A stretch of 9,242 nucleotides of DNA, taken from IMG/VR virus record IMGVR_UViG_2529293240_000018. One strand, written 5' to 3'. Origin of the DNA: a virus. Its lineage: Duplodnaviria > Heunggongvirae > Uroviricota > Caudoviricetes. This document shows, piece by piece, positions 1 to 9,242 of the stretch (its first letter is position 1; each line of letters opens with the position of its first letter). Both the position numbers and the translations under genes were made by a program. The notes beneath the pieces were generated by a model that was not told the origin of the DNA, searched no databases, and saw only the letters and a list, made by a program, of their open reading frames with translations.

Positions 1-717
1 GTGAAAGTACTCAACGAGCTAAGGCAGTTTTATCCTCTTGATGAGCTTCTCAGGGCTGCGGAGATACCGCGCAGTACGTTTTATTACCATCTAAAGGCTC
101 TCAGCAAGCCTGACAAGTATGCGGACGTTAAAAAGCGTATTGGTGAGATTTATCACGAGAATAGAGGCCGATACGGATACCGTAGGGTAACGCTGTCTCT
201 TCATCGAGAAGGGAAACAGATTAACCATAAAGCTGTTCAGCGCCTGATGGGAACCCTCTCACTTAAAGCAGCGATTAAGGTCAAGCGATACCGCTCTTAC
301 AGAGGAGAGGTAGGGCAAACCGCCCCTAATGTTCTCCAAAGAGATTTCAAGGCTACGCGGCCAAACGAGAAGTGGGTTACCGATGTTACTGAATTTGCAG
401 TCAATGGGCGCAAGCTGTATTTGTCTCCAGTAATAGATCTCTTCAACAACGAAGTTATTTCTTACAGCCTTTCGGAAAGACCAGTGATGAACATGGTTGA
501 GAATATGCTCGATCAGGCATTCAAAAAGCTTAATCCTCACGAGCATCCTGTTCTGCACTCTGACCAGGGATGGCAGTATCGTATGAGAAGATATCAAAAT
601 ATCCTTAAAGAACATGGTATTAAACAAAGCATGTCCAGAAAAGGCAATTGTCTGGATAATGCTGTGGTGGAGTGTTTCTTTGGAACCTTAAAGTCGGAGT
701 GTTTTTATCTTGATGAG
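1..717 (+). mobile_element. IS150 (IS3 family) internal fragment; the 5' part with orfA lies upstream of the window and the 3' end is replaced by IS2
   Basis: Translation from position 1 matches my recollection of IS150 OrfB (InsK: MKVLNELRQFYPLDELLRAAEIPRSTFYYHLKAL...[30 protein letters not shown]). Homology stops exactly at 717, where the IS2 terminal repeat begins. Confidence 0.8.
1..717 (+). pseudogene. insK: IS150 transposase OrfB (InsK), truncated after codon 239 by the IS2 junction
   Basis: The 267-aa ORF in the track (1..804) is chimeric: codons 1-239 are InsK-like, and the last 28 aa ([28 protein letters not shown]) are translated from the IS2 right inverted repeat. The DDE region (HSDQGWQY ... 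[10 protein letters not shown]) is retained but the C-terminal ~44 aa are missing. Confidence 0.8.
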
Positions 718-728
718 TGGATTTGCCC

Positions 729-1634
729 CTATATTTCCAGACATCTGTTATCACTTAACCCATTACAAGCCCGCTGCCGCAGATATTCCCGTGGCGAGCG
801 ATAACCCAGCGCACTATGCGGATGCCATTCGTTATAATGCTCGAACGCCTCTGCAAGGTTCTTTGCTGCCGTTAACCCGTCTGGTTTGGGCATGATACTG
901 ATGTAGTCACGCTTTATCGTTTTCACGAAGCTCTCTGCTATTCCGTTACTCTCCGGACTCCGCACCGCCGTGTTCTTCGGTTCAAGTCCCAACATCCGGG
1001 CGAACTGGCGTGTTTCATTAGCCCGGTAGCATGAACCATTATCCGTCAGCCACTCCACTGGAGACGACGGAAGATCGTTGCCGAAGCGGCGTTCCACCGC
1101 TCCCAGCATGACGTCCTGTACTGTTTCACTGTTGAAGCCGCCGGTAGTCACCGCCCAGTGCAGTGCCTCACGATCACAGCAGTCCAGCGCGAACGTGACA
1201 CGCAGTCTCTCTCCGTTATCACAGCAGAACTCGAACCCGTCAGAGCACCATCGCTGATTGCTTTCTTTCACGGCTACTCTGCCTGTATGTGCCCGTTTCG
1301 ATGGCGGTACAGCAGGTTTTCGCTCAAGCAACAGCGCATTCTGGCGCATGATCCGGTAAACACGTTTGGCATTGATCGCAGGCATACCATCAAGTTCTGC
1401 CTGTCTGCGAAGCAGCGCCCATACCCGACGATAACCATACGTGGGCAGCTCTCCGATAACATGGTGTATACGGAGAAGCACATCCGTATCATCAGTGTGA
1501 CGACTGCGGCGGCCATCCATCCAGTCATCGGTTCGTCTGAGAATGACGTGCAACTGCGCACGCGACACCCGGAGACAACGGCTGACTAAGCTTACTCCCC
1601 ATCCCCGGGCAATAAGGGCGCGTGCGCTATCCAC
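729..1634 (-). CDS. insD: IS2 OrfB (InsD), DDE transposase catalytic part, 301 aa
   Basis: Translation (GTG start) [30 protein letters not shown]... matches IS2 InsD. It overlaps the end of orfA in the -1 frame. Confidence 0.9.
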
Positions 1635-1957
1635 TTTTTTGCCCGTCCATATTCAACGGCTTCTTTGAGGAGTTCATTTTCCATCGTTTTCTTGCCGAGC
1701 AGGCGCTGGAGTTCTTTAATCTGCTTCATGGCGGCAGCAAGTTCAGAGGCAGGAACAACCTGTTCTCCGGCGGCCACAGCAGTAAGACTTCCTTCCTGGT
1801 ATTGCTTACGCCAGAGAAATAACTGGCTGGCTGCTACACCATGTTGCCGGGCAACGAGGGAGACCGTCATCCCCGGTTCAAAGCTCTGCTGAACAATTGC
1901 GATCTTTTCCTGTGTGGTACGCCGTCTGCGTTTCTCCGGCCCTAAGACATCAATCAT
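1592..1957 (-). CDS. insC: IS2 OrfA (InsC), 121 aa, HTH/leucine-zipper regulator
   Basis: Translation [56 protein letters not shown]...[20 protein letters not shown] is IS2 InsC as I recall it. Confidence 0.9.
1634..1640 (-). promoter_or_regulatory. IS2 programmed -1 ribosomal frameshift heptamer A AAA AAG in the orfA/orfB overlap
   Basis: Minus strand reads GGGCAAAAAAGTGG; in the orfA frame this is gcA AAA AAG tgg. IS3-family elements use this motif to make the OrfAB transposase (established knowledge). Confidence 0.55.
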
Positions 1958-2031
1958 CTGTTCTCCAATGACTAGTCTAAAAACTGTATTAAGACTATCA
2001 CTTAAATAAGTGATACTGGTTGTCTGGAGAT

Positions 2032-2916
2032 TCAGGGGGCCAGTCTAGCAACAGTGAACGTTGTGTTGCCATTCATATCAATACCCGGCGGAGCCTTACG
2101 CCAGATGGCCGCCGCGATATCTGCCGGGCTGCCGCCGTACACGCCAACATAAAGCGAACCGGGTGTTAATGGATACTGACTGACTCCGGCTTTTTGTTCT
2201 GTTTTTTTCGGATTATGGGTGACGTAAACATCCACCACGTTTTCCACCGTGGAGAGTATTTCACCCCGGATGGCTTCCAGAATATTCCGGGCATTACGGG
2301 CAACTGAATTACGTCGGCGGTTTTCAAAGTCCGCACGGGTTTCCTCATCGCTGCCCGGCACACCGGCACTGGCGTTAGTGACACCTGACCAGCCAGGTAT
2401 TGCCTTATAAATTTTATTCAGCGTCCCCACAGGACAGCCGACGGGGCCGGTGGACAAATTCAGAAATACCGCATCAACCTGCCCTGATGCGCCGATAGTG
2501 ACGTCTGACTGACTGACATACTTATAACCGGCCTCATCCTGCGCCATACTGCCCGCCGGGATCAGCGTGCCAACCAGCCCGGTACAGGTCGCTGTTACTG
2601 TCGTACCTGTGGCCCCGCGGCGCTCCAGGAAATAAATCCTGCCTATTGCATCCTGAAAGCGACCACTGGAAAAGTCAGGGTTGATCTGGTTAACGATATA
2701 CAGCAACTGATCGTTTTTATCCGCAATAATGGCGCTTTCGCTGGATGCAAGTTGTCCCTGCGGACTGCTCAGACTGGTACTCATGGCCCCGCCCAGCGCC
2801 GCCGAAAAATCAGCAAGCCTGCCGCTCAGAATATCCGCTTCATCCGGCACATTCAGCCCGCTATCCGAAATCTGTACAGCGGGCACTGCGGTAGAAAAAG
2901 ATTTATTTTCACTCAT
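2032..2916 (-). pseudogene. Phage baseplate J-like protein (Mu gp47 / P2 gpJ-like), C-terminally truncated at the IS2 junction
   Basis: 294-aa ORF; the last 4 codons (RLAP) and the stop come from the IS2 terminus (2032..2047). Position downstream of gpV-like and gp46-like genes, with a 4-bp start/stop overlap with the upstream gene. Internal segment ETRADFENRRRNSVARNARNILEAIRGEILSTVENVVDVYVTHNP loosely resembles the gpJ core. Family call is by synteny and weak similarity. Confidence 0.5.
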
Positions 2917-3269
2917 AGCAGTACCGTAAAAATGTCATTATTGGTATCTGTAATACGCAGCACACCTGTTACTGTCCGGGTTTGATCAGCTGTGACCAGG
3001 CAGACAGCGGCGCTCACGGTCGGCAGTTTAAGTGCTTCCTGTTGCAGAGTGGCATTCACCAGTTGTGTGCCGGGCCAGTGTCCGAGGATGCGTGGCCAGT
3101 AAGGTATGCCAGCCGTTGAGTCGTACCAGCACTCCCCCAGAAAAGTACTGCACGCACACGCCACATCCTGAGCTACCGCATGGGGATTATCAGTAATGGC
3201 AAGATTTCCGGTATCATCAAGCAGGATATCCCATGTCCCGGTGTCAAGAAGAAGTGATCGTGACTGCAT
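2913..3269 (-). CDS. Phage baseplate protein, Mu gp46-like by position and size (118 aa)
   Basis: Intact ORF between the gpV-like and J-like genes in the canonical hub-V-gp46-gp47 order; no diagnostic motif recognised. Confidence 0.4.
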   Translation of the reverse strand: MQSRSLLLDTGTWDILLDDTGNLAITDNPHAVAQDVACACSTFLGECWYDSTAGIPYWPRILGHWPGTQLVNATLQQEALKLPTVSAAVCLVTADQTRTVTGVLRITDTNNDIFTVLL

Positions 3270-3281
3270 GTTTTCTCCTGT

Positions 3282-3939
3282 TTACCGGGGTCCCTGCGTG
3301 GTTGAGCCGCCGGACTCAACGCCGCCGTGAACGTGGTTTCCAAAATCAATACCCCCGATGTTCGAACCGCCGGAAAGCCTGGACTGCCCGGTAACGTCAA
3401 GCCCCTTACTGACGGCGGTATCGCCGTTCAGCGCAATTTGTGGTGAATTAACGGTGAAGCTTTTCGGCGCATTAATCACACCCTCAGGCGCGGATATCTC
3501 CACTTTCCAGGGAGATACAATCCGTATCTGGTTGTCATCAAATACCACAAACTGGACGGGATCACCGTTGAGCACGCCACCCAGCCAGATGGCATCAGCA
3601 TAATTATGGGTACGCTTTGATCCCGGCATCGCAGCCTGACGCGTGGCTTTTACCGCACTGATATCCCGATCGCAGATGGCAAGAAAACCGATATCCCCCA
3701 CATGTGGCGGCATAATCACCGCATTACCGCCCCCCTGTAGTCGCCATACGGGAATGTTATAAATCACCTCATGTTCAACCGGGGAACCGTCTGCTGCAAC
3801 GCCCATTACCATCGGTCGGGCCTCAATAAATCCCTCTTCCACGGCTACCACCCGTCCCAGAGTGATAAACGCATGACGTCCGAGAAACTGCCGCAGCATA
3901 AAGTCCTGTGCATTGATTTCGCTGTTCACGTCTGTCGGG

Positions 3940-3959
<20 letters not shown>
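3282..3959 (-). CDS. Phage baseplate assembly protein V / central spike (Mu gp45 / P2 gpV-like), 225 aa
   Basis: C-terminal glycine-rich apex motif ...GGSNIGGIDFGNHVHGGVESGGSTTQGPR resembles the P2 gpV C-terminus (..HTHKHPGDSGGTTGSP..). Overlaps the upstream gene by 20 bp, typical of a phage morphogenesis operon. Confidence 0.65.
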
Positions 3960-5616
<1,657 letters not shown>

Positions 5617-5685
5617 TGGAGCACCTGTGTTGTTCTGAGGTGAGCATATCACCTCTGTTCAGGTGGCCAAATTCAGTGTGCCACT

Positions 5686-5967
5686 TCACTTTAGCTCACC
5701 GTTTTGCAGGAGAATGTCGAGCACATCCATCTGGTCGATTTCAACCAATCTACGAAGAACATAAGCGGCATCTATACCTACCTCTTCGTTTCGCTCGGCT
5801 TTAAGCTCAGCAATGCGCTTTGCGATATTAGCTTTTATTAGGTTTTTGCATCCTTGTACGGCGGCAGAATCCTCACTGTAACCCGCCCTGATGGCTGCTT
5901 GCGTGGCATTGAGATCTTTCAGGTACTCACGGGCAAACAGCTCTTGTTTGTCGGTGAGCTTTGCCAT
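5686..5967 (-). pseudogene. Phage terminase small subunit (TerS), N-terminal 93 aa, C-terminally truncated by IS911
   Basis: MAKLTDKQELFAREYLKDLNATQAAIRAGYSEDSAAVQGCKNLIKANIAKRIAELKAERNEEVGIDAAYVLRRL... has the typical small-terminase N-terminal motif (MAKLT.KQE.F..EYL.D.NATQAAIRAGYS). The stop codon is the TGA of the IS911 terminus. A GGAG Shine-Dalgarno sits about 10 nt upstream of the ATG. Confidence 0.75.
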
Positions 5968-6098
5968 TATTTGTGCTCCGTTTATCCGTTAAAAGGGATA
6001 TCAGTTAAGTTATCCCGTGTAGGGTATAAGCCATTATCAAGCCCACCAGTAGATGGACTTTGTAATGAAGAGCCGTTGTGAAAGTAGCTCTCAGGTTG

Positions 6099-6302
6099 TC
6101 ATTTTTCCCTTTTCTGCCTACCTGCCCACTGTTTTGCAATGTACAGGCAGTCATCGAAAACTCGGCCTTTTCTGCTGGCTTGTGAACAACGGCGGTAATG
6201 CTCCACCGCCATGTCAGCGCCAGTCATAGCCGCGTTCTGGTCGTACCCAAGCTTTATTAACTCGGTTGTTACATTTTTATGTATGAAATCAATCGGAGTC
6301 AT
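6099..6302 (-). CDS. Hypothetical small phage protein, 67 aa
   Basis: Open frame MTPIDFIHKNVTTELIKLGYDQNAAMTGADMAVEHYRRCSQASRKGRVFDDCLYIAKQWAGRQKREK, co-oriented with and upstream of terS. Its start codon overlaps the stop of the upstream small ORF (ATGA). No family recognised. Confidence 0.45.
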   Translation of the reverse strand: MTPIDFIHKNVTTELIKLGYDQNAAMTGADMAVEHYRRCSQASRKGRVFDDCLYIAKQWAGRQKREK

Positions 6303-6415
6303 GCTGGTTTACCATCAGGGAAATCCCCCATGTCACATAGCTTGAACTGAATCAGATCCTTCACAAGCTGCTCAGCCTTTTTAATGGCCTTCTTCTCTTT
6401 CTTCCGACGAGTCAT
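6299..6415 (-). CDS. Small lysine-rich ORF, 38 aa (below the ORF-track cutoff), possibly 5'-truncated by IS600
   Basis: ATG at 6413-6415 (minus): MTRRKKEKKAIKKAEQLVKDLIQFKLCDMGDFPDGKPA, with its TGA overlapping the ATG of the 67-aa ORF. The frame stays open upstream into the IS600 end 10 bp away, so the true N-terminus may be lost. Confidence 0.3.
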   Translation of the reverse strand: MTRRKKEKKAIKKAEQLVKDLIQFKLCDMGDFPDGKPA

Positions 6416-6489
6416 GAGAGCGCTATGAGGTAGCCTGAGTTTAACGGACACTCCTTCCTGAAATAGAATGGCATCAGAAGGAGCTAATA

Positions 6490-6792
6490 ATGAGCAGAAA
6501 AACCCAACGTTACTCTAAAGAGTTCAAAGCCGAAGCTGTCAGAACGGTTCTTGAAAATCAACTTTCGATCAGTGAAGGCGCTTCCCGATTATCCCTTCCT
6601 GAAGGCACTTTAGGACAATGGGTTACCGCCGCAAGAAAAGGGCTCGGTACTCCTGGTTCCCGCACGGTGGCTGAACTGGAATCTGAAATTCTGCAACTGC
6701 GTAAGGCGTTAAATGAAGCTCGCCTTGAGCGAGATATATTAAAAAAAGCAACAGCGTATTTTGCACAGGAGTCGCTGAAAAATACGCGTTAA
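6490..6792 (+). CDS. IS600 OrfA (HTH/leucine-zipper regulator), 100 aa
   Basis: MSRKTQRYSKEFKAEAVRTVLENQLSISEGASRLSLPEGTLGQWVTAARKG...DILKKATAYFAQESLKNTR; intact. Confidence 0.85.
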   Translation: MSRKTQRYSKEFKAEAVRTVLENQLSISEGASRLSLPEGTLGQWVTAARKGLGTPGSRTVAELESEILQLRKALNEARLERDILKKATAYFAQESLKNTR

Positions 6793-7668
6793 TCGAACAA
6801 TGGCGACAACAATTTCCCATTGAAGCGATGTGTCAGGTATTTGGTGTATCCAGGAGCGGTTATTACAACTGGGTACAGCATGAACCCTCAGACAGAAACA
6901 AAGTGATGAGCGGCTAAAACTGGAGATTAAGGTGGCACATATCCGCACTCGCGAAACATATGGAACCCGGCGGCTCCAGACGGAGCTGGCAGAGAATGGC
7001 ATCATCGTTGGTCGTGACCGACTGGCACGTCTTCGTAAGGAGCTAAGGCTACGCTGTAAGCAGAAACGCAAGTTCAGAGCGACTACGAACCCGAACCACA
7101 ATCTGCCAGTTGCGCCAAATCTGCTGAACCAGACGTTCGCTCCTACAGCACCAAATCAGGTCTGGGTGGCGGACCAAATCAGGTCTGGGTGGCGGACCTG
7201 ACGTATGTTGCCACACAGGAGGGATGGTTGTACCTCGCTGGCATCAAAGATGTTTATACGTGCGAAATTGTCGGCTACGCCATGGGAGAGCGCATGATAA
7301 AAGAGCTGACAGGTAAAGCCCTGTTTATGGCGCTCAGGAGCCAGCGCCCACCTGCCGGGCTAATCCACCACTCTGATCGAGGTTCACAGTACTGCGCATA
7401 CGATTACCGGGTCATACAGGAGCAGTCTGGTCTGAAAACATCAATGTCGCGTAAAGGTAACTGTTACGACAACGCTCCGATGGAAAGCTTCTGGGGAACG
7501 CTGAAAAATGAGAGCCTGAGCCACTATCGTTTTAATAACCGGGATGAAGCCATCTCAGTAATACGGGAATACATTGAGATTTTCTACAATCGTCAGCGTC
7601 GTCACTCTCGTCTGGGGAATATCTCCCCGGCAGCCTTCAGGGAAAAATATCATCAGATGGCTGCTTAA
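6741..7668 (+). pseudogene. IS600 OrfB transposase, disrupted by a 1-bp deletion and a 23-bp tandem duplication
   Basis: OrfB homology runs through three frames: frame 0 from the A7 slippery run at 6741-6747 (..FPIEAMCQVFGVSRSGYYNWVQHEPSDR); frame 2 from about 6896 (KQSDERLKLEIKVAHIRTRETYG...APNQVWVAD); frame 1 after the duplication (LTYVATQEGWLYLAGIKD...HSDRGSQY...[18 protein letters not shown]...). Confidence 0.8.
7151..7196 (+). repeat. Perfect 23-bp tandem duplication (2 copies of CCAAATCAGGTCTGGGTGGCGGA) inside IS600 orfB
   Basis: Read directly: 7151-7173 and 7174-7196 are identical. It duplicates the codons for PNQVWVAD and shifts the frame. Confidence 0.9.
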
Positions 7669-7691
7669 AAAAGAACAAATGGTAGTGTCCG

Positions 7692-8307
7692 CTATTGCCA
7701 GTACACCTCATAACCGCGTTCGATCGGTTTAGGGGGAAGTGGTGCCTGAACGATGACATCACACCGGCTACAGGCCAGTTTGGGACGTATGGTTTCGATA
7801 ACTTTAAAGGCGGTATTAATGATATCCAGTTGCTCTGAGATTGTTTCCCCCATTTCTTTCAGAACACCTCCACAGGCCGGGCAACTGGTTTCAGCAGGCA
7901 GAAGGCGATGTGTCTCCCGGGGAAGTTCTGCCGGCAGCGGTTTTCGTGAAGATTTTCGTCCCGGGAATTCAGGCTTACTGGCGATCGGGTTTTCTGACGG
8001 GGGACTGGTGTCAGGTGAATCTGTGACTGACGATGCATCTTCCAGAAGATTTCTGGCTGTGTTCAGCCGGTTTTCCAGTTCCGACAGTCGTTTTTCTGCC
8101 TGTCGGATCTGATTTTCAAGCTTATGACGCTTTTTCTCTGAACTCTGGCCGAACAACATACGACGCAACCTGTCGAGTTGCGCTTTTCAGCCGTTCAATT
8201 TCCTGCTCATAGCCCGCGACCTGACAGGCATACTGTCGAAGCCGACTCTGTTGCTTACGCAACATGGCTTTAAGCAGCTCAATATCATCGGGGAGTTCAT
8301 TGTTCAT
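7692..8307 (-). pseudogene. IS66-family transposase TnpC, N-terminal ~205 codons only, with an internal frameshift
   Basis: The 61-aa (8122..8307) and 158-aa (7692..8168) ORFs are two frames of one gene: MNNELPDDIELLKAMLRKQQ...EQEIERLK | AQLDRLRRMLFGQSSEKKRHKLENQ...CPACGG.... Removing one base from the T4 run at 8184-8187 (plus) rejoins them. Homology ends at 7711; the last codons come from IS600. Confidence 0.75.
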
Positions 8308-8319
8308 TCCCTTGTTTTA

Positions 8320-8669
8320 TCACGGGTTATATCCGGATGCCAGGCCGTTCTGTCCGTTTGGGATGTTGCCACGGATCCCCTCCAGTAGCATGGATAACTG
8401 AGCTGGCGTCAGGTGCACTTCCTCCCGGGTCACCGGCCAGAGAAGCGGCCCCGTTCCAGGCGTTTGGCGAACAGGCATAACCCGTCACGATCGGCCCACA
8501 GTATTTTCACCATTTTGCCACTGCGGCCCCGGAAGACGAAGATATGCCCGGAGAACGGGTCATCTTTCAGCGTGTTCTGCACCTTCGAAGCCAGGCCATT
8601 GAAGCCACAACGCATATCTGTGATGCCAGCGATGATCCAGATTTTGGTACCGGTCGGCAGCGTTATCAT
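8320..8669 (-). pseudogene. IS66-family TnpB (orf2), apparently carrying two frame-disrupting indels
   Basis: Frame 1 gives MITLPTGTKIWIIAGITDMRCGFNGLASKVQNTLKDDPFSGHIFVFRGRSGKMVKILWADRDGLCLFAKRLERGRF. A second frame continues WPVTREEVHLTPAQLSMLLEGI. A third gives DPWQHPKRTERPGIRI. Breaks are near 8436-8446 and 8366-8380; exact positions need a reference alignment. Confidence 0.6.
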
Positions 8670-9164
8670 CGGATACCCCCTTTCATTTCGCGGATTAGCG
8701 CCCGTAACAGTTCCGGAGTGAGAGGGTCAAACAGTTTTACCACACCTGATTTTAAGATGCAGCTCGCACCGTGGGACGTTTCCGGGAGCCCCCTCAGGGC
8801 GCTCATCATGCTTGTTACGCCAGAAGGGATTTGTAACTGGTCTGGTCGGCTCCGGCGTATCAGTCAGAGCCACCGGGACAGGCATGCATTCCTGTATGTC
8901 ATCATCGCTCAGTAAGCCGTCCTCGTACTGGCTTTTCCATTTAAACAGCAGGTTATTATTGATATCGTGTTCTCTGGCGATCCGGGCAACAACAGCCCCA
9001 GGCTGTAACGCCTGCTTAGCCAGACGGACCTTAAATTCACGGCTATAGCTGGTTCGCCGTTCTTTTCGCCATGAGCCTTCTCTGATTTGAGGCTCTGTTA
9101 ATTCCTTCTTTCTGTTGGCATAAAGGATGGCGTCAAGTTGAGCGAATGAAACTGAATCGGGCAA
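8667..9164 (-). pseudogene. IS66-family TnpA (orf1), with a frameshift near the C-terminus
   Basis: 145-aa ORF (8727..9164) ...RTSYSREFKVRLAKQALQPGAVVARIAREHDINNNLLFKWKSQYEDG...CELHLKI. The expected C-terminus (GVVKLFDPLTPELLRALIREMKGGIR, stop overlapping the tnpB ATG in ATGA) is in another frame; the break is near 8741-8750. Confidence 0.6.
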
Positions 9165-9242
9165 TGGCCATGCGATACCGGATGCAAGAAATCGCTGAAA
9201 AAGCGTATGTATTGTGGAATGACTGAGACCCAGACGCTGAGC

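Follow-up and report, generated by a model that had tools for sequence, protein, structure and literature searches.

A Shigella flexneri J17B prophage remnant reduced by insertion sequences of five different kinds

Layout of the locus

The window, i.e., the whole stretch of 9,242 nucleotides that was analysed, lies at the end of a contig in the draft assembly of Shigella flexneri J1713/SFJ17B (strain J17B). It is a dead prophage remnant in the chromosome of this strain that insertion sequences (IS) of five different kinds have reduced in size, and displays the following features, with prophage matches given in coordinates of the intact prophage contig (L001) of the enteroinvasive E. coli (EIEC) VL46:

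1..717, plus strand: IS150 fragment, nt 566-1282 of 1443, 99.7% identical to a K-12 IS150 annotated as a mobile element
718..2047, minus strand: complete IS2, aligning over its full length with four other copies, each with a 5-bp duplication
2048..4440, minus strand: prophage piece 1, 99.8% identical to L001 20001-22393
2032-2916, minus strand: truncated baseplate J ORF, first ~289 of 413 codons, with its stop inside IS2 (Pfam Baseplate_J)
2913-3269, minus strand: sheath initiator (Pfam Sheath_initiator)
3282-3959, minus strand: spike, with the spike N-terminal domain
3940-4440, minus strand: truncated hub gene, last ~167 of 289 codons
4441..5688, minus strand: complete IS911, inverted repeats at 4440-4467 and 5662-5689, 99.8% identical to an annotated IS911 copy with a GTA duplication
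5689..6425, minus strand: prophage piece 2, 99.5% identical to L001 37621-38358
5689-5967, minus strand: truncated small terminase, first 93 of 184 codons, with a stop provided by the IS911 end (Terminase_2 domain)
6099-6302, minus strand: 67-aa ORF within prophage piece 2
6299-6425, minus strand: C-terminal part (last ~41 codons) of a 198-aa phage protein
6426..7710, plus strand: IS600 with both ends intact, aligning over its full length with six 1264-bp copies, all with 3-bp duplications
7150..7195, plus strand: 23-bp tandem duplication, ACCAAATCAGGTCTGGGTGGCGG twice, the copies 100% identical, breaking the frame of IS600 orfB
7711..9242, minus strand: fragment of ISSfl3 (IS66 family), 99% identical to annotated ISSfl3 (Pfam zf-IS66, TnpB_IS66, HTH_Tnp_1)
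8307 down to 7711, minus strand: truncated tnpC of ISSfl3, first ~198 codons
~8326-8669, minus strand: tnpB of ISSfl3 (TnpB_IS66)
~8666 to the window end, minus strand: truncated tnpA of ISSfl3 (HTH_Tnp_1)

All six boundaries between these segments could be mapped to the single base and lie exactly where an earlier note, made from the letters alone, had placed them. That note had also put the IS share at roughly two thirds, for which we measured 66% (6112 of 9242 bases), and had likened the locus to the decay of IS-rich Shigella and E. coli lineages, in agreement with its source in an IS-rich Shigella flexneri. Since no subject in a whole-window search of E. coli genomes and plasmids spanned more than 45% of the window, we analysed it segment by segment. 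Probes across the six junctions (80+80 nt each) recovered only the separate halves, and no junction, from complete E. coli genomes and plasmids, and an Rfam search of the window gave no match. A PacBio RS II plus HiSeq assembly of the same strain (J17B, CP100042) covers window 1-7710 in one alignment at 99.92% and reproduces five of the six junctions exactly.

The insertion sequences

The hallmarks of the IS3 family are present, namely inverted repeats at the termini and a pair of successive ORFs (the first with HTH_Tnp_1, the second with the rve DDE domain); the genes called on the identical contig bear Pfam HTH_Tnp_1, HTH_21, rve and rve_3. Identity to reference copies is 99.7% for IS150, 99.5-99.9% for IS2, 99.8% for IS911 and 97.4-97.9% for IS600, and the latter three align end to end with other full copies (annotated by RefSeq as IS2, IS911 and IS600 family transposases). 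The IS150 fragment begins at the GTG of insK/orfB and lacks the final 161 bp of the element; in J17B the rest of IS150 runs on to the left end of the element, which meets K-12 coordinate 1,492,142 in sokB, upstream of trg. IS2, with orfB at 729-1634, orfA at 1592-1957 and terminal inverted repeats at 726-757 and 2007-2038, links IS150 nt 1282 to the middle of the baseplate J gene. It is 1330 bp long in the window against 1331 bp in other copies, the difference being an indel at 1985 relative to J17B, and IS911 is likewise 1248 bp in the window against 1249 bp both in J17B and in a copy on a plasmid.

IS600 has a phage gene on one side and mid-tnpC sequence of ISSfl3 on the other, and measures 1285 bp against the usual 1264 bp, owing to the 23-bp duplication in orfB, which is present in the complete IS600 of the PacBio assembly and absent from a second J17B IS600 copy and all control copies. 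In the long-read genome the right end of the complete IS600 abuts precisely nt 429 of this second, 5′-truncated IS600; the IS600-end/ISSfl3 junction (7710/7711) is real, but it is the truncated copy that carries it. ISSfl3 belongs to the IS66 family by its tnpA-tnpB-tnpC order, its domains and its identity to named copies. The part in the window corresponds to 3999/4001-5535 of a full copy at ~2963-5716 (L010), with the distal ~1,036 bp missing and the outer 181 bp beyond the window end, and it is a fragment because J17B keeps only 1,718 of ~2,754 bp.

The prophage pieces and their intact relative

The alignments to the intact VL46 prophage end exactly at 2048, 4440, 5689 and 6425, and the two phage pieces are collinear parts, in the same orientation, of this one myovirus-like prophage. 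A contractile-tailed prophage of the ipaH-associated kind would be expected to combine collinear structural genes of an E217-like myovirus module with an ipaH gene beyond its tail-fibre end. In VL46 the prophage adjoins an ipaH gene (ipaHa), and homologous prophages in other genomes display an LRR_TTSS/NEL gene at the tail-fibre end. In J17B that end is replaced by IS2 and IS150, which hides any former ipaH gene. IS911 occupies the place of 15,227 bp of missing prophage (L001 22394-37620), and beyond ISSfl3 in J17B the phage resumes at L001 39934, with only 38359-39933 missing there. Three prophage stretches are absent, and every gap is filled by IS DNA with the exact terminal nucleotide of an IS at the breakpoint.

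Other isolates (L004, L005) have the IS2/baseplate J junction together with an intact hub gene, which shows that the decay proceeded in steps, the IS2 event preceding the IS911 deletion. This sister lineage also has an IS911 in the same orientation 43 bp away (L001 37577 vs 37621). A nested one-sided series of IS911 deletions, uniting the window with L004/L005, was rejected because both flanks differ (22393|37621 vs 37577|~37579) when compared over the bases up to the IS, where the L004/L005 contigs stop. Contigs L029-L034 are uninterrupted paralogues. None of the 15 hub variants listed is broken at the IS911 site (their breaks lie elsewhere), no simple IS911 insertion was found at L001 37621, and a full small-terminase search for shortened variants marking other IS911 sites returned near full-length homologues only. 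Because GG^CT is found at both breakpoints, a microhomology deletion was considered, with IS911 inserting afterwards into the scar; it was rejected, as the insertion would leave a 3-bp duplication.

IS ends and target-site duplications

A simple insertion is expected to leave a duplication of 5 bp for IS2 and of 3 bp for IS911 and IS600. In the window, the bases flanking IS2 are ATGAG and GCAAC, those flanking IS911 (ends TGAAGTGG...CCACTTCA) are CGG and CTT, and those flanking IS600 (ends TGAGGTAG...ACACCTCA) are CTA and TAA, so that 0/3 complete elements have the target duplication of a simple insertion. Nine distinct control sites, scored with the same end definitions as the window copies, all have a perfect one: ATTTC, ATGAC and ATGGC for IS2; CTG, AAG, AAC, GCC and GAC for IS600; and GTA for IS911 (9/9 vs 0/3, Fisher exact p = 1/220). 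The phage pieces also do not form composite transposons, being bracketed by unlike elements (IS2/IS911, then IS911/IS600).

The central claim of the earlier note, that five IS elements abut each other and phage DNA with no target-site duplications, thus stands after exact end-mapping, a search for matching direct repeats having found none at IS2, IS911 or IS600. Its description of unrelated genes on both sides of every IS holds for IS2 (between IS150 and phage) and IS600 (between phage and ISSfl3), but not for the phage pieces, which come from one collinear prophage remnant. In no uninterrupted reference were the flanks contiguous once the IS was removed; in the intact prophage, 15,227 bp separate those of IS911. 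This distance, together with the missing duplications, supports IS-associated deletion or recombination rather than simple insertion, as the note had proposed.

Recombination between like IS copies

The present data fit both IS-mediated deletion and recombination between copies. We favour recombination between like IS copies as the route by which the remnant was whittled down by IS-associated rearrangement, beyond mere insertion, and give this reading a probability of roughly 0.6. Simple insertions would have come first, of ISSfl3 into the phage lysozyme gene and IS600 into ISSfl3 tnpC, and likewise of IS150 into sokB beside trg and IS2 into IS150. Extra copies of IS2, IS911 and IS600 would then have inserted nearby in the prophage, and RecA-type homologous recombination between two like-oriented copies of one IS may have deleted the intervening DNA; the single IS left behind would take its two flanks from different parent sites and hence have no duplication. 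Recombination at IS911 would have removed 15.2 kb with most tail, head and packaging genes; that at IS600, 1.6 kb of phage and parts of ISSfl3 and of an older IS600; and that at IS2 would have removed or inverted all between IS150 and baseplate J.

Such a history is consistent with the exact IS ends, the contrast in duplications (0/3 vs 9/9), the collinearity, the 15,227-bp gap and the reproduction of the structure in the same-strain long-read assembly. Homologous prophages in other Shigella/EIEC genomes bear simple IS2 and IS600 insertions with duplications, which would be its raw material. Furthermore, copies in the PacBio assembly are damaged too, IS600 by the 23-bp duplication that breaks orfB and IS911 by being 1 bp short of what we take to be its canonical length, which makes it less plausible that these copies supplied their own transposase. 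No genome was found to carry the two-copy intermediate that this model predicts. The complete IS600 of J17B followed by the nt-429 copy needs three IS600 insertions within 3 kb under recombination; a single transposase-mediated event would explain this tandem more economically.

Alternative routes of rearrangement

Transposase-catalysed intramolecular events, in which an IS3-family end joined a nearby target in a one-step deletion or inversion with no duplication, are possible but rather unlikely. Each breakpoint is the exact terminal nucleotide of an IS, although the same is equally expected from recombination between two simple insertions. The exact joining of the complete-IS600 right end to nt 429 resembles the attack of an IS end on a target, and the sister-lineage IS911, 43 bp away and in the same orientation, suggests local IS911 activity, but its two differing flanks do not make a nested one-sided series. 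Intramolecular deletions and inversions have been described in plasmid assays for the junction and dimer forms of IS911 and IS2, whereas IS3-family elements mainly transpose by copy-out-paste-in via circles, leaving the donor site untouched. A reactive tandem (IS)2 dimer or an abutted-end junction is a possible form of such an event. It is doubtful that the junctions are the natural footprints of one-step intramolecular joining by IS3-family transposases, with the IS600-nt 429 junction of J17B as its preserved product; if they were, part of Shigella genome reduction would be done directly by transposase and not by host homologous recombination.

It also seems unlikely that the IS2 junction arose without DNA loss, through a large inversion or translocation involving copies of IS2 (or IS150) in inverted orientation. 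The left flank lies at trg/sokB (K-12 1.49 Mb), and the intact VL46 prophage adjoins ompC-rcs-yfaS; IS-to-IS inversions, moreover, predominate among Shigella rearrangements (PMC8072062). However, this prophage family occupies many chromosomal sites, with several copies per genome (e.g., beside sit-like ABC transporter, rsmF-like methyltransferase and bioA-like aminotransferase genes), and hence a different position needs no inversion. An inversion would imply that the missing IS150 half and the tail-fibre/ipaH prophage end lie together elsewhere in the chromosome.

Comparison with known systems

IS-driven prophage decay of this kind in Shigella is already well documented. Published work describes the expansion of IS1, IS2, IS4, IS600 and IS911 in Shigella (PMC7373316, Hawkey et al. 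2020), deletions by recombination between direct repeats and inversions between inverted ones (PMC8072062, Seferbekova et al. 2021), and a reconstruction in which inversions on Shigella branches number 103/114 (PMC8072062). These studies list IS150 and ISSfl3 for S. flexneri and place ipaH genes amid prophage genes and IS (PMC7373316, PMC8072062). The organisms, the elements and the outcome (pseudogenes, deletions and rearrangements at IS) are the same as here, and nothing in the J17B remnant differs in kind; it adds one locus at base level, which the accessible parts of these papers do not single out (PMC7373316, PMC8072062). Its significance is modest, as a clean base-level example of the stepwise dismantling of Shigella prophages by IS.

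The same IS pairs recur in nested insertions on Shigella/EIEC pINV (IS911 in IS600, L025; IS600 in ISSfl3, L009), but those have perfect 3-bp duplications and both target halves, whereas the window lacks one half of each target IS. Deletions of the rbs operon beside a resident IS150 reportedly arose in the E. coli long-term evolution experiment, and are said to be explained by insertion of a further copy that then recombined with the resident one. The window resembles these deletions in that one flank of a resident IS3-family element is retained, the other being distant DNA with no duplication; the rbs series has one fixed endpoint, whereas the single sister-lineage IS911 shares neither flank with that of the window. 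Reactive tandem (IS)2 dimers and abutted-end junctions of IS911, IS2 and IS30 give deletions and inversions from an exact IS end. J17B likewise has two directly abutting IS600 copies, yet a true (IS)2 dimer consists of two complete copies a few bases apart and the second J17B copy begins at nt 429, so it is not one.

Fidelity of the draft assembly

The window makes up the final 9.2 kb of a contig from a 2011 draft, which crosses four multi-copy IS and stops 2 bp further on, beside the site where IS2 interrupts another ISSfl3 copy, and its single IS600 corresponds in the PacBio genome to a complete and a partial copy in tandem; even so, it is very improbable that the draft was threaded wrongly through multi-copy IS into juxtapositions absent from the cell, given that CP100042 matches 1-7710 at 99.92% and contains the IS600-end/ISSfl3 junction, that independent short-read contigs from other samples stop in these IS2 and IS911 termini at identical phage bases (L006), and that the 737-bp piece flanked by IS911 and IS600 agrees with 730-bp S. 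flexneri contigs bearing a 91-aa terS fragment. An assembly artefact is refuted for five junctions. The long-read comparison, which the earlier note had suggested as a check against a chimera, bears the structure out at these five; at 7710/7711 the draft is distorted by a collapsed tandem IS600, and it appears to have merged the complete IS600 with the second, truncated copy. Draft assemblies can thus silently fuse adjacent IS copies.

Short indels, mostly of 1 bp, account for nearly all other differences between the draft and the PacBio genome. Over window 6854-9242 there are nine gaps relative to J17B with 32 gap positions, 23 of which are the IS600 duplication; five of the nine fall in the ISSfl3 part, where they break tnpC, tnpB and tnpA in the draft only. 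Many apparent frameshifts in the IS genes of the window are therefore draft indels and not biology, and in annotation the genes are best marked as a prophage remnant and IS fragments rather than as functional phage or transposase genes.

Insertion sequences without target-site duplications

IS DNA accounts for 6112 of the 9242 bases (66%), matching an earlier estimate of roughly two thirds, and the assignment of its elements rests on full-length alignments to RefSeq-named copies (97.4-99.9% identity) and on Pfam domains found in the genes called there.

Insertion sequences in the window (position, strand, element)
1-717, IS150 fragment (nt 566-1282 of 1443; 99.7% identical to the K-12 element), opening with the start codon of insK
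718-2047, minus, IS2, complete
4441-5688, minus, IS911, complete
6426-7710, plus, IS600, both ends intact
7711-9242, minus, ISSfl3 (IS66 family) fragment, tnpA-tnpB-tnpC'

None of the three complete elements is bordered by a duplicated target, the flanks being ATGAG/GCAAC for IS2, CGG/CTT for IS911 and CTA/TAA for IS600. To check that duplications would show, we applied the same end definitions to other full IS copies from Shigella/EIEC loci, and recovered ATTTC (L017), ATGAC (L014, L019) and ATGGC (L025) for IS2, CTG and AAG (L020), AAC (L014, L015), GCC (L009) and GAC (L013) for IS600, and GTA for an IS911 copy nested in an IS600 (L025). Perfect duplications are thus found at all nine distinct control sites versus 0/3 in the window (Fisher exact p = 1/220), in agreement with the earlier note, which had reported their absence. 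A diverged IS600-like element (91.6%) on an EIEC plasmid likewise lacks a duplication. The three complete elements did not arrive between their present flanks by simple insertion, and DNA has been lost or relocated at each of them.

Prophage and backbone DNA at the junctions

As a coordinate reference for the phage DNA we used L001, 42 kb of DNA from EIEC strain VL46 in which a contractile-tailed prophage is intact, with ipaHa past its tail-fibre end. Window 2048-4440 corresponds to L001 20001-22393 (99.8%) and encodes baseplate J' (289/413 codons), the sheath initiator, the spike and hub' (the last 167/289 codons); window 5689-6425 corresponds to L001 37621-38358 (99.5%) and encodes a small terminase' (93/184 codons), an ORF of 67 aa and the final part of a 198-aa protein. 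The alignments end at exactly the positions first proposed as IS/phage boundaries. Since both pieces keep the order and orientation of the intact prophage, IS911 occupies the exact place of 15,227 missing bp (L001 22394-37620), which hold 18 whole genes (tail, head, portal and large terminase) and two partial ones. In the intact prophage, both IS911 breakpoints fall within the tetranucleotide GG^CT (L001 22392-22395 and 37619-37622; window 4439-4440 and 5689-5690), which could reflect chance or a target preference.

Just left of the window in the genome, the left end of IS150 adjoins K-12 coordinate 1,492,142 within sokB (13482/13483 of L002, the corresponding locus of the long-read S. flexneri J17B genome), followed past sokB by trg, ydcI, ydcJ, opgD, ydcH and rimL; the hokB/sokB pair hit by IS150 is a toxin-antitoxin locus and lies upstream of trg. 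IS150 of K-12 likewise lies in a hok/sok-type locus, hokA/sokA.

Comparison with the long-read assembly

In reverse orientation, the window is 100% identical over its 9242 bases to the terminal part of contig AFOW01000022.1 (assembly GCA_000217895.2), which extends only 2 bp past window 9242. This assembly is that of Shigella flexneri J1713 (PMC6397287), with SFJ1713_ locus tags and proteins labelled 'Shigella flexneri SFJ17B'; CP100042, the chromosome of S. flexneri 3a strain J17B completed from PacBio RS II and HiSeq reads (PMC10732043), is therefore a long-read re-assembly of a strain identical by name to that of the draft. Window 1-7710 aligns to J17B in one piece (7715 columns, 1 mismatch, five 1-bp gaps), and the long reads thus confirm five of the six junctions (717/718, 2047/2048, 4440/4441, 5688/5689 and 6425/6426).

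At the sixth, J17B has a complete IS600 and, immediately adjacent, a second one whose first base is IS600 nt 429 (corresponding to window 6854); ISSfl3 comes next, and its first base is the one seen in the window.

IS600 tandem in J17B (position, feature)
L002 4367-6489, IS600 plus partial IS600, equal to window 6426-7710 plus 836 bp extra

Hence, the junctions read from the draft are reproduced at five positions, and the IS600-end/ISSfl3 junction (7710/7711) is real but belongs to the second, 5'-truncated IS600. The draft has only one IS600 copy here, most likely a collapsed repeat in which two copies were merged, but it may instead be a recombination pop-out in one stock. Past ISSfl3, phage DNA restarts in J17B at L001 39934, within the lysozyme gene, and continues through the holin and a tRNA cluster; the phage loss on this side is only 1,575 bp, and with it went some 1,036 bp of ISSfl3 and the initial 428 bp of an older IS600.

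The IS600 of the window contains a perfect 23-bp tandem duplication in orfB (7150-7195), which brings the copy to 1285 bp versus 1264 and breaks the transposase frame. This duplication is real, because the complete PacBio copy carries it too, and it occurs in no other IS600 examined. Apart from its absence from the second J17B copy, the draft-PacBio differences (window 1985, 5614, 6107, 6898, 7670, 8187, 8374, 8421-8445 and 8753) are nearly all 1-2 bp indels, mostly at short base runs. The draft indels are most crowded in ISSfl3, close to the contig end, and break the frames of IS911 orfA and ISSfl3 tnpA, tnpB and tnpC in the draft only; they are, with these apparent frameshifts, probably draft sequencing errors. 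The contig end adjoins the ISSfl3 position equivalent to 5537-5541 of a full copy (L010), which in another ISSfl3 copy, on an S. flexneri plasmid, is occupied by IS2 (L025 4544-5874), which would explain why the assembler halted near window 9242.

Origin of the junctions

The absence of duplications and the 15,227 bp that separate the IS911 flanks in L001 support the earlier note's reading of IS-mediated deletion or recombination over simple transposition. We favor, with a probability of about 0.6, a mechanism in which ordinary insertions would have come first and two copies of one IS, lying in like orientation, would then have recombined, because simple insertions of the same IS are abundant in this prophage family and could furnish the raw material, because the IS911 and IS600 copies of the window look defective as transposase sources, and because such recombination is already the established explanation of Shigella rearrangements (PMC8072062). 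A tentative alternative, and the main rival, is that transposase joined DNA within one molecule in a single step; its best support is the precise joint of the IS600 end to IS600 nt 429 in J17B. On the IS150 side, the junction has neither the prophage's tail-fibre/ipaH end nor the backbone from the hokB side. For the IS2 event only, an inversion instead of a deletion is conceivable though rather unlikely. Assembly artefact is excluded at the five junctions reproduced by J17B and accounts only for the merged IS600.

IS1, IS2, IS4, IS600 and IS911 have expanded in all Shigella alongside genome reduction, and IS150 and ISSfl3 are present in S. flexneri (PMC7373316); IS-linked rearrangements are documented, as is the placement of chromosomal ipaH genes amid IS and genes of prophages (PMC8072062). 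The window is a correct and well-resolved case of this known IS-driven process, a kind of feature already known, as was anticipated when it was likened to the genome decay of IS-rich Shigella/E. coli.

Distribution and relative age

Probes of 80+80 nt across the six junctions recovered none in one piece among 5,426 complete E. coli genomes and 72,556 plasmids. Besides J17B and the draft, seven short-read contigs encode the chimeric baseplate J' protein with its stop within IS2, nine contigs in total. In one type (L006), the contig is bounded by the IS2 and IS911 termini found in the window; another (L004/L005, a sister lineage of S. flexneri) shares the IS2 junction but keeps the hub gene intact, so the IS2 event is older than the IS911 deletion. 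The sister lineage has also lost 13.3 kb of this prophage at a scar that lacks an IS (L001 23268|36550, with a 4-bp overlap at positions 1051-1054 of L004 and L005), so the prophage decays without IS too. Its IS911, in the same orientation, lies at L001 37577, 43 bp from the window's terS breakpoint; a nested one-sided series joining the two IS911 events was rejected, since the flanks differ on both sides. In further isolates, 730-bp S. flexneri contigs that encode 91 aa of the terminase are compatible with the 737-bp piece between IS911 and IS600.

The collection lists the spike protein in 1,351 blocks. In the ten Shigella/EIEC loci read (L011-L020), the prophage family sits at a number of chromosomal sites, frequently as two copies in one genome; an LRR_TTSS/NEL (ipaH-type) gene lies just past the tail-fibre genes in seven of these ten, and simple IS insertions are seen in several. 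Hub fragments broken at other positions are present in S. flexneri, S. sonnei and S. dysenteriae.
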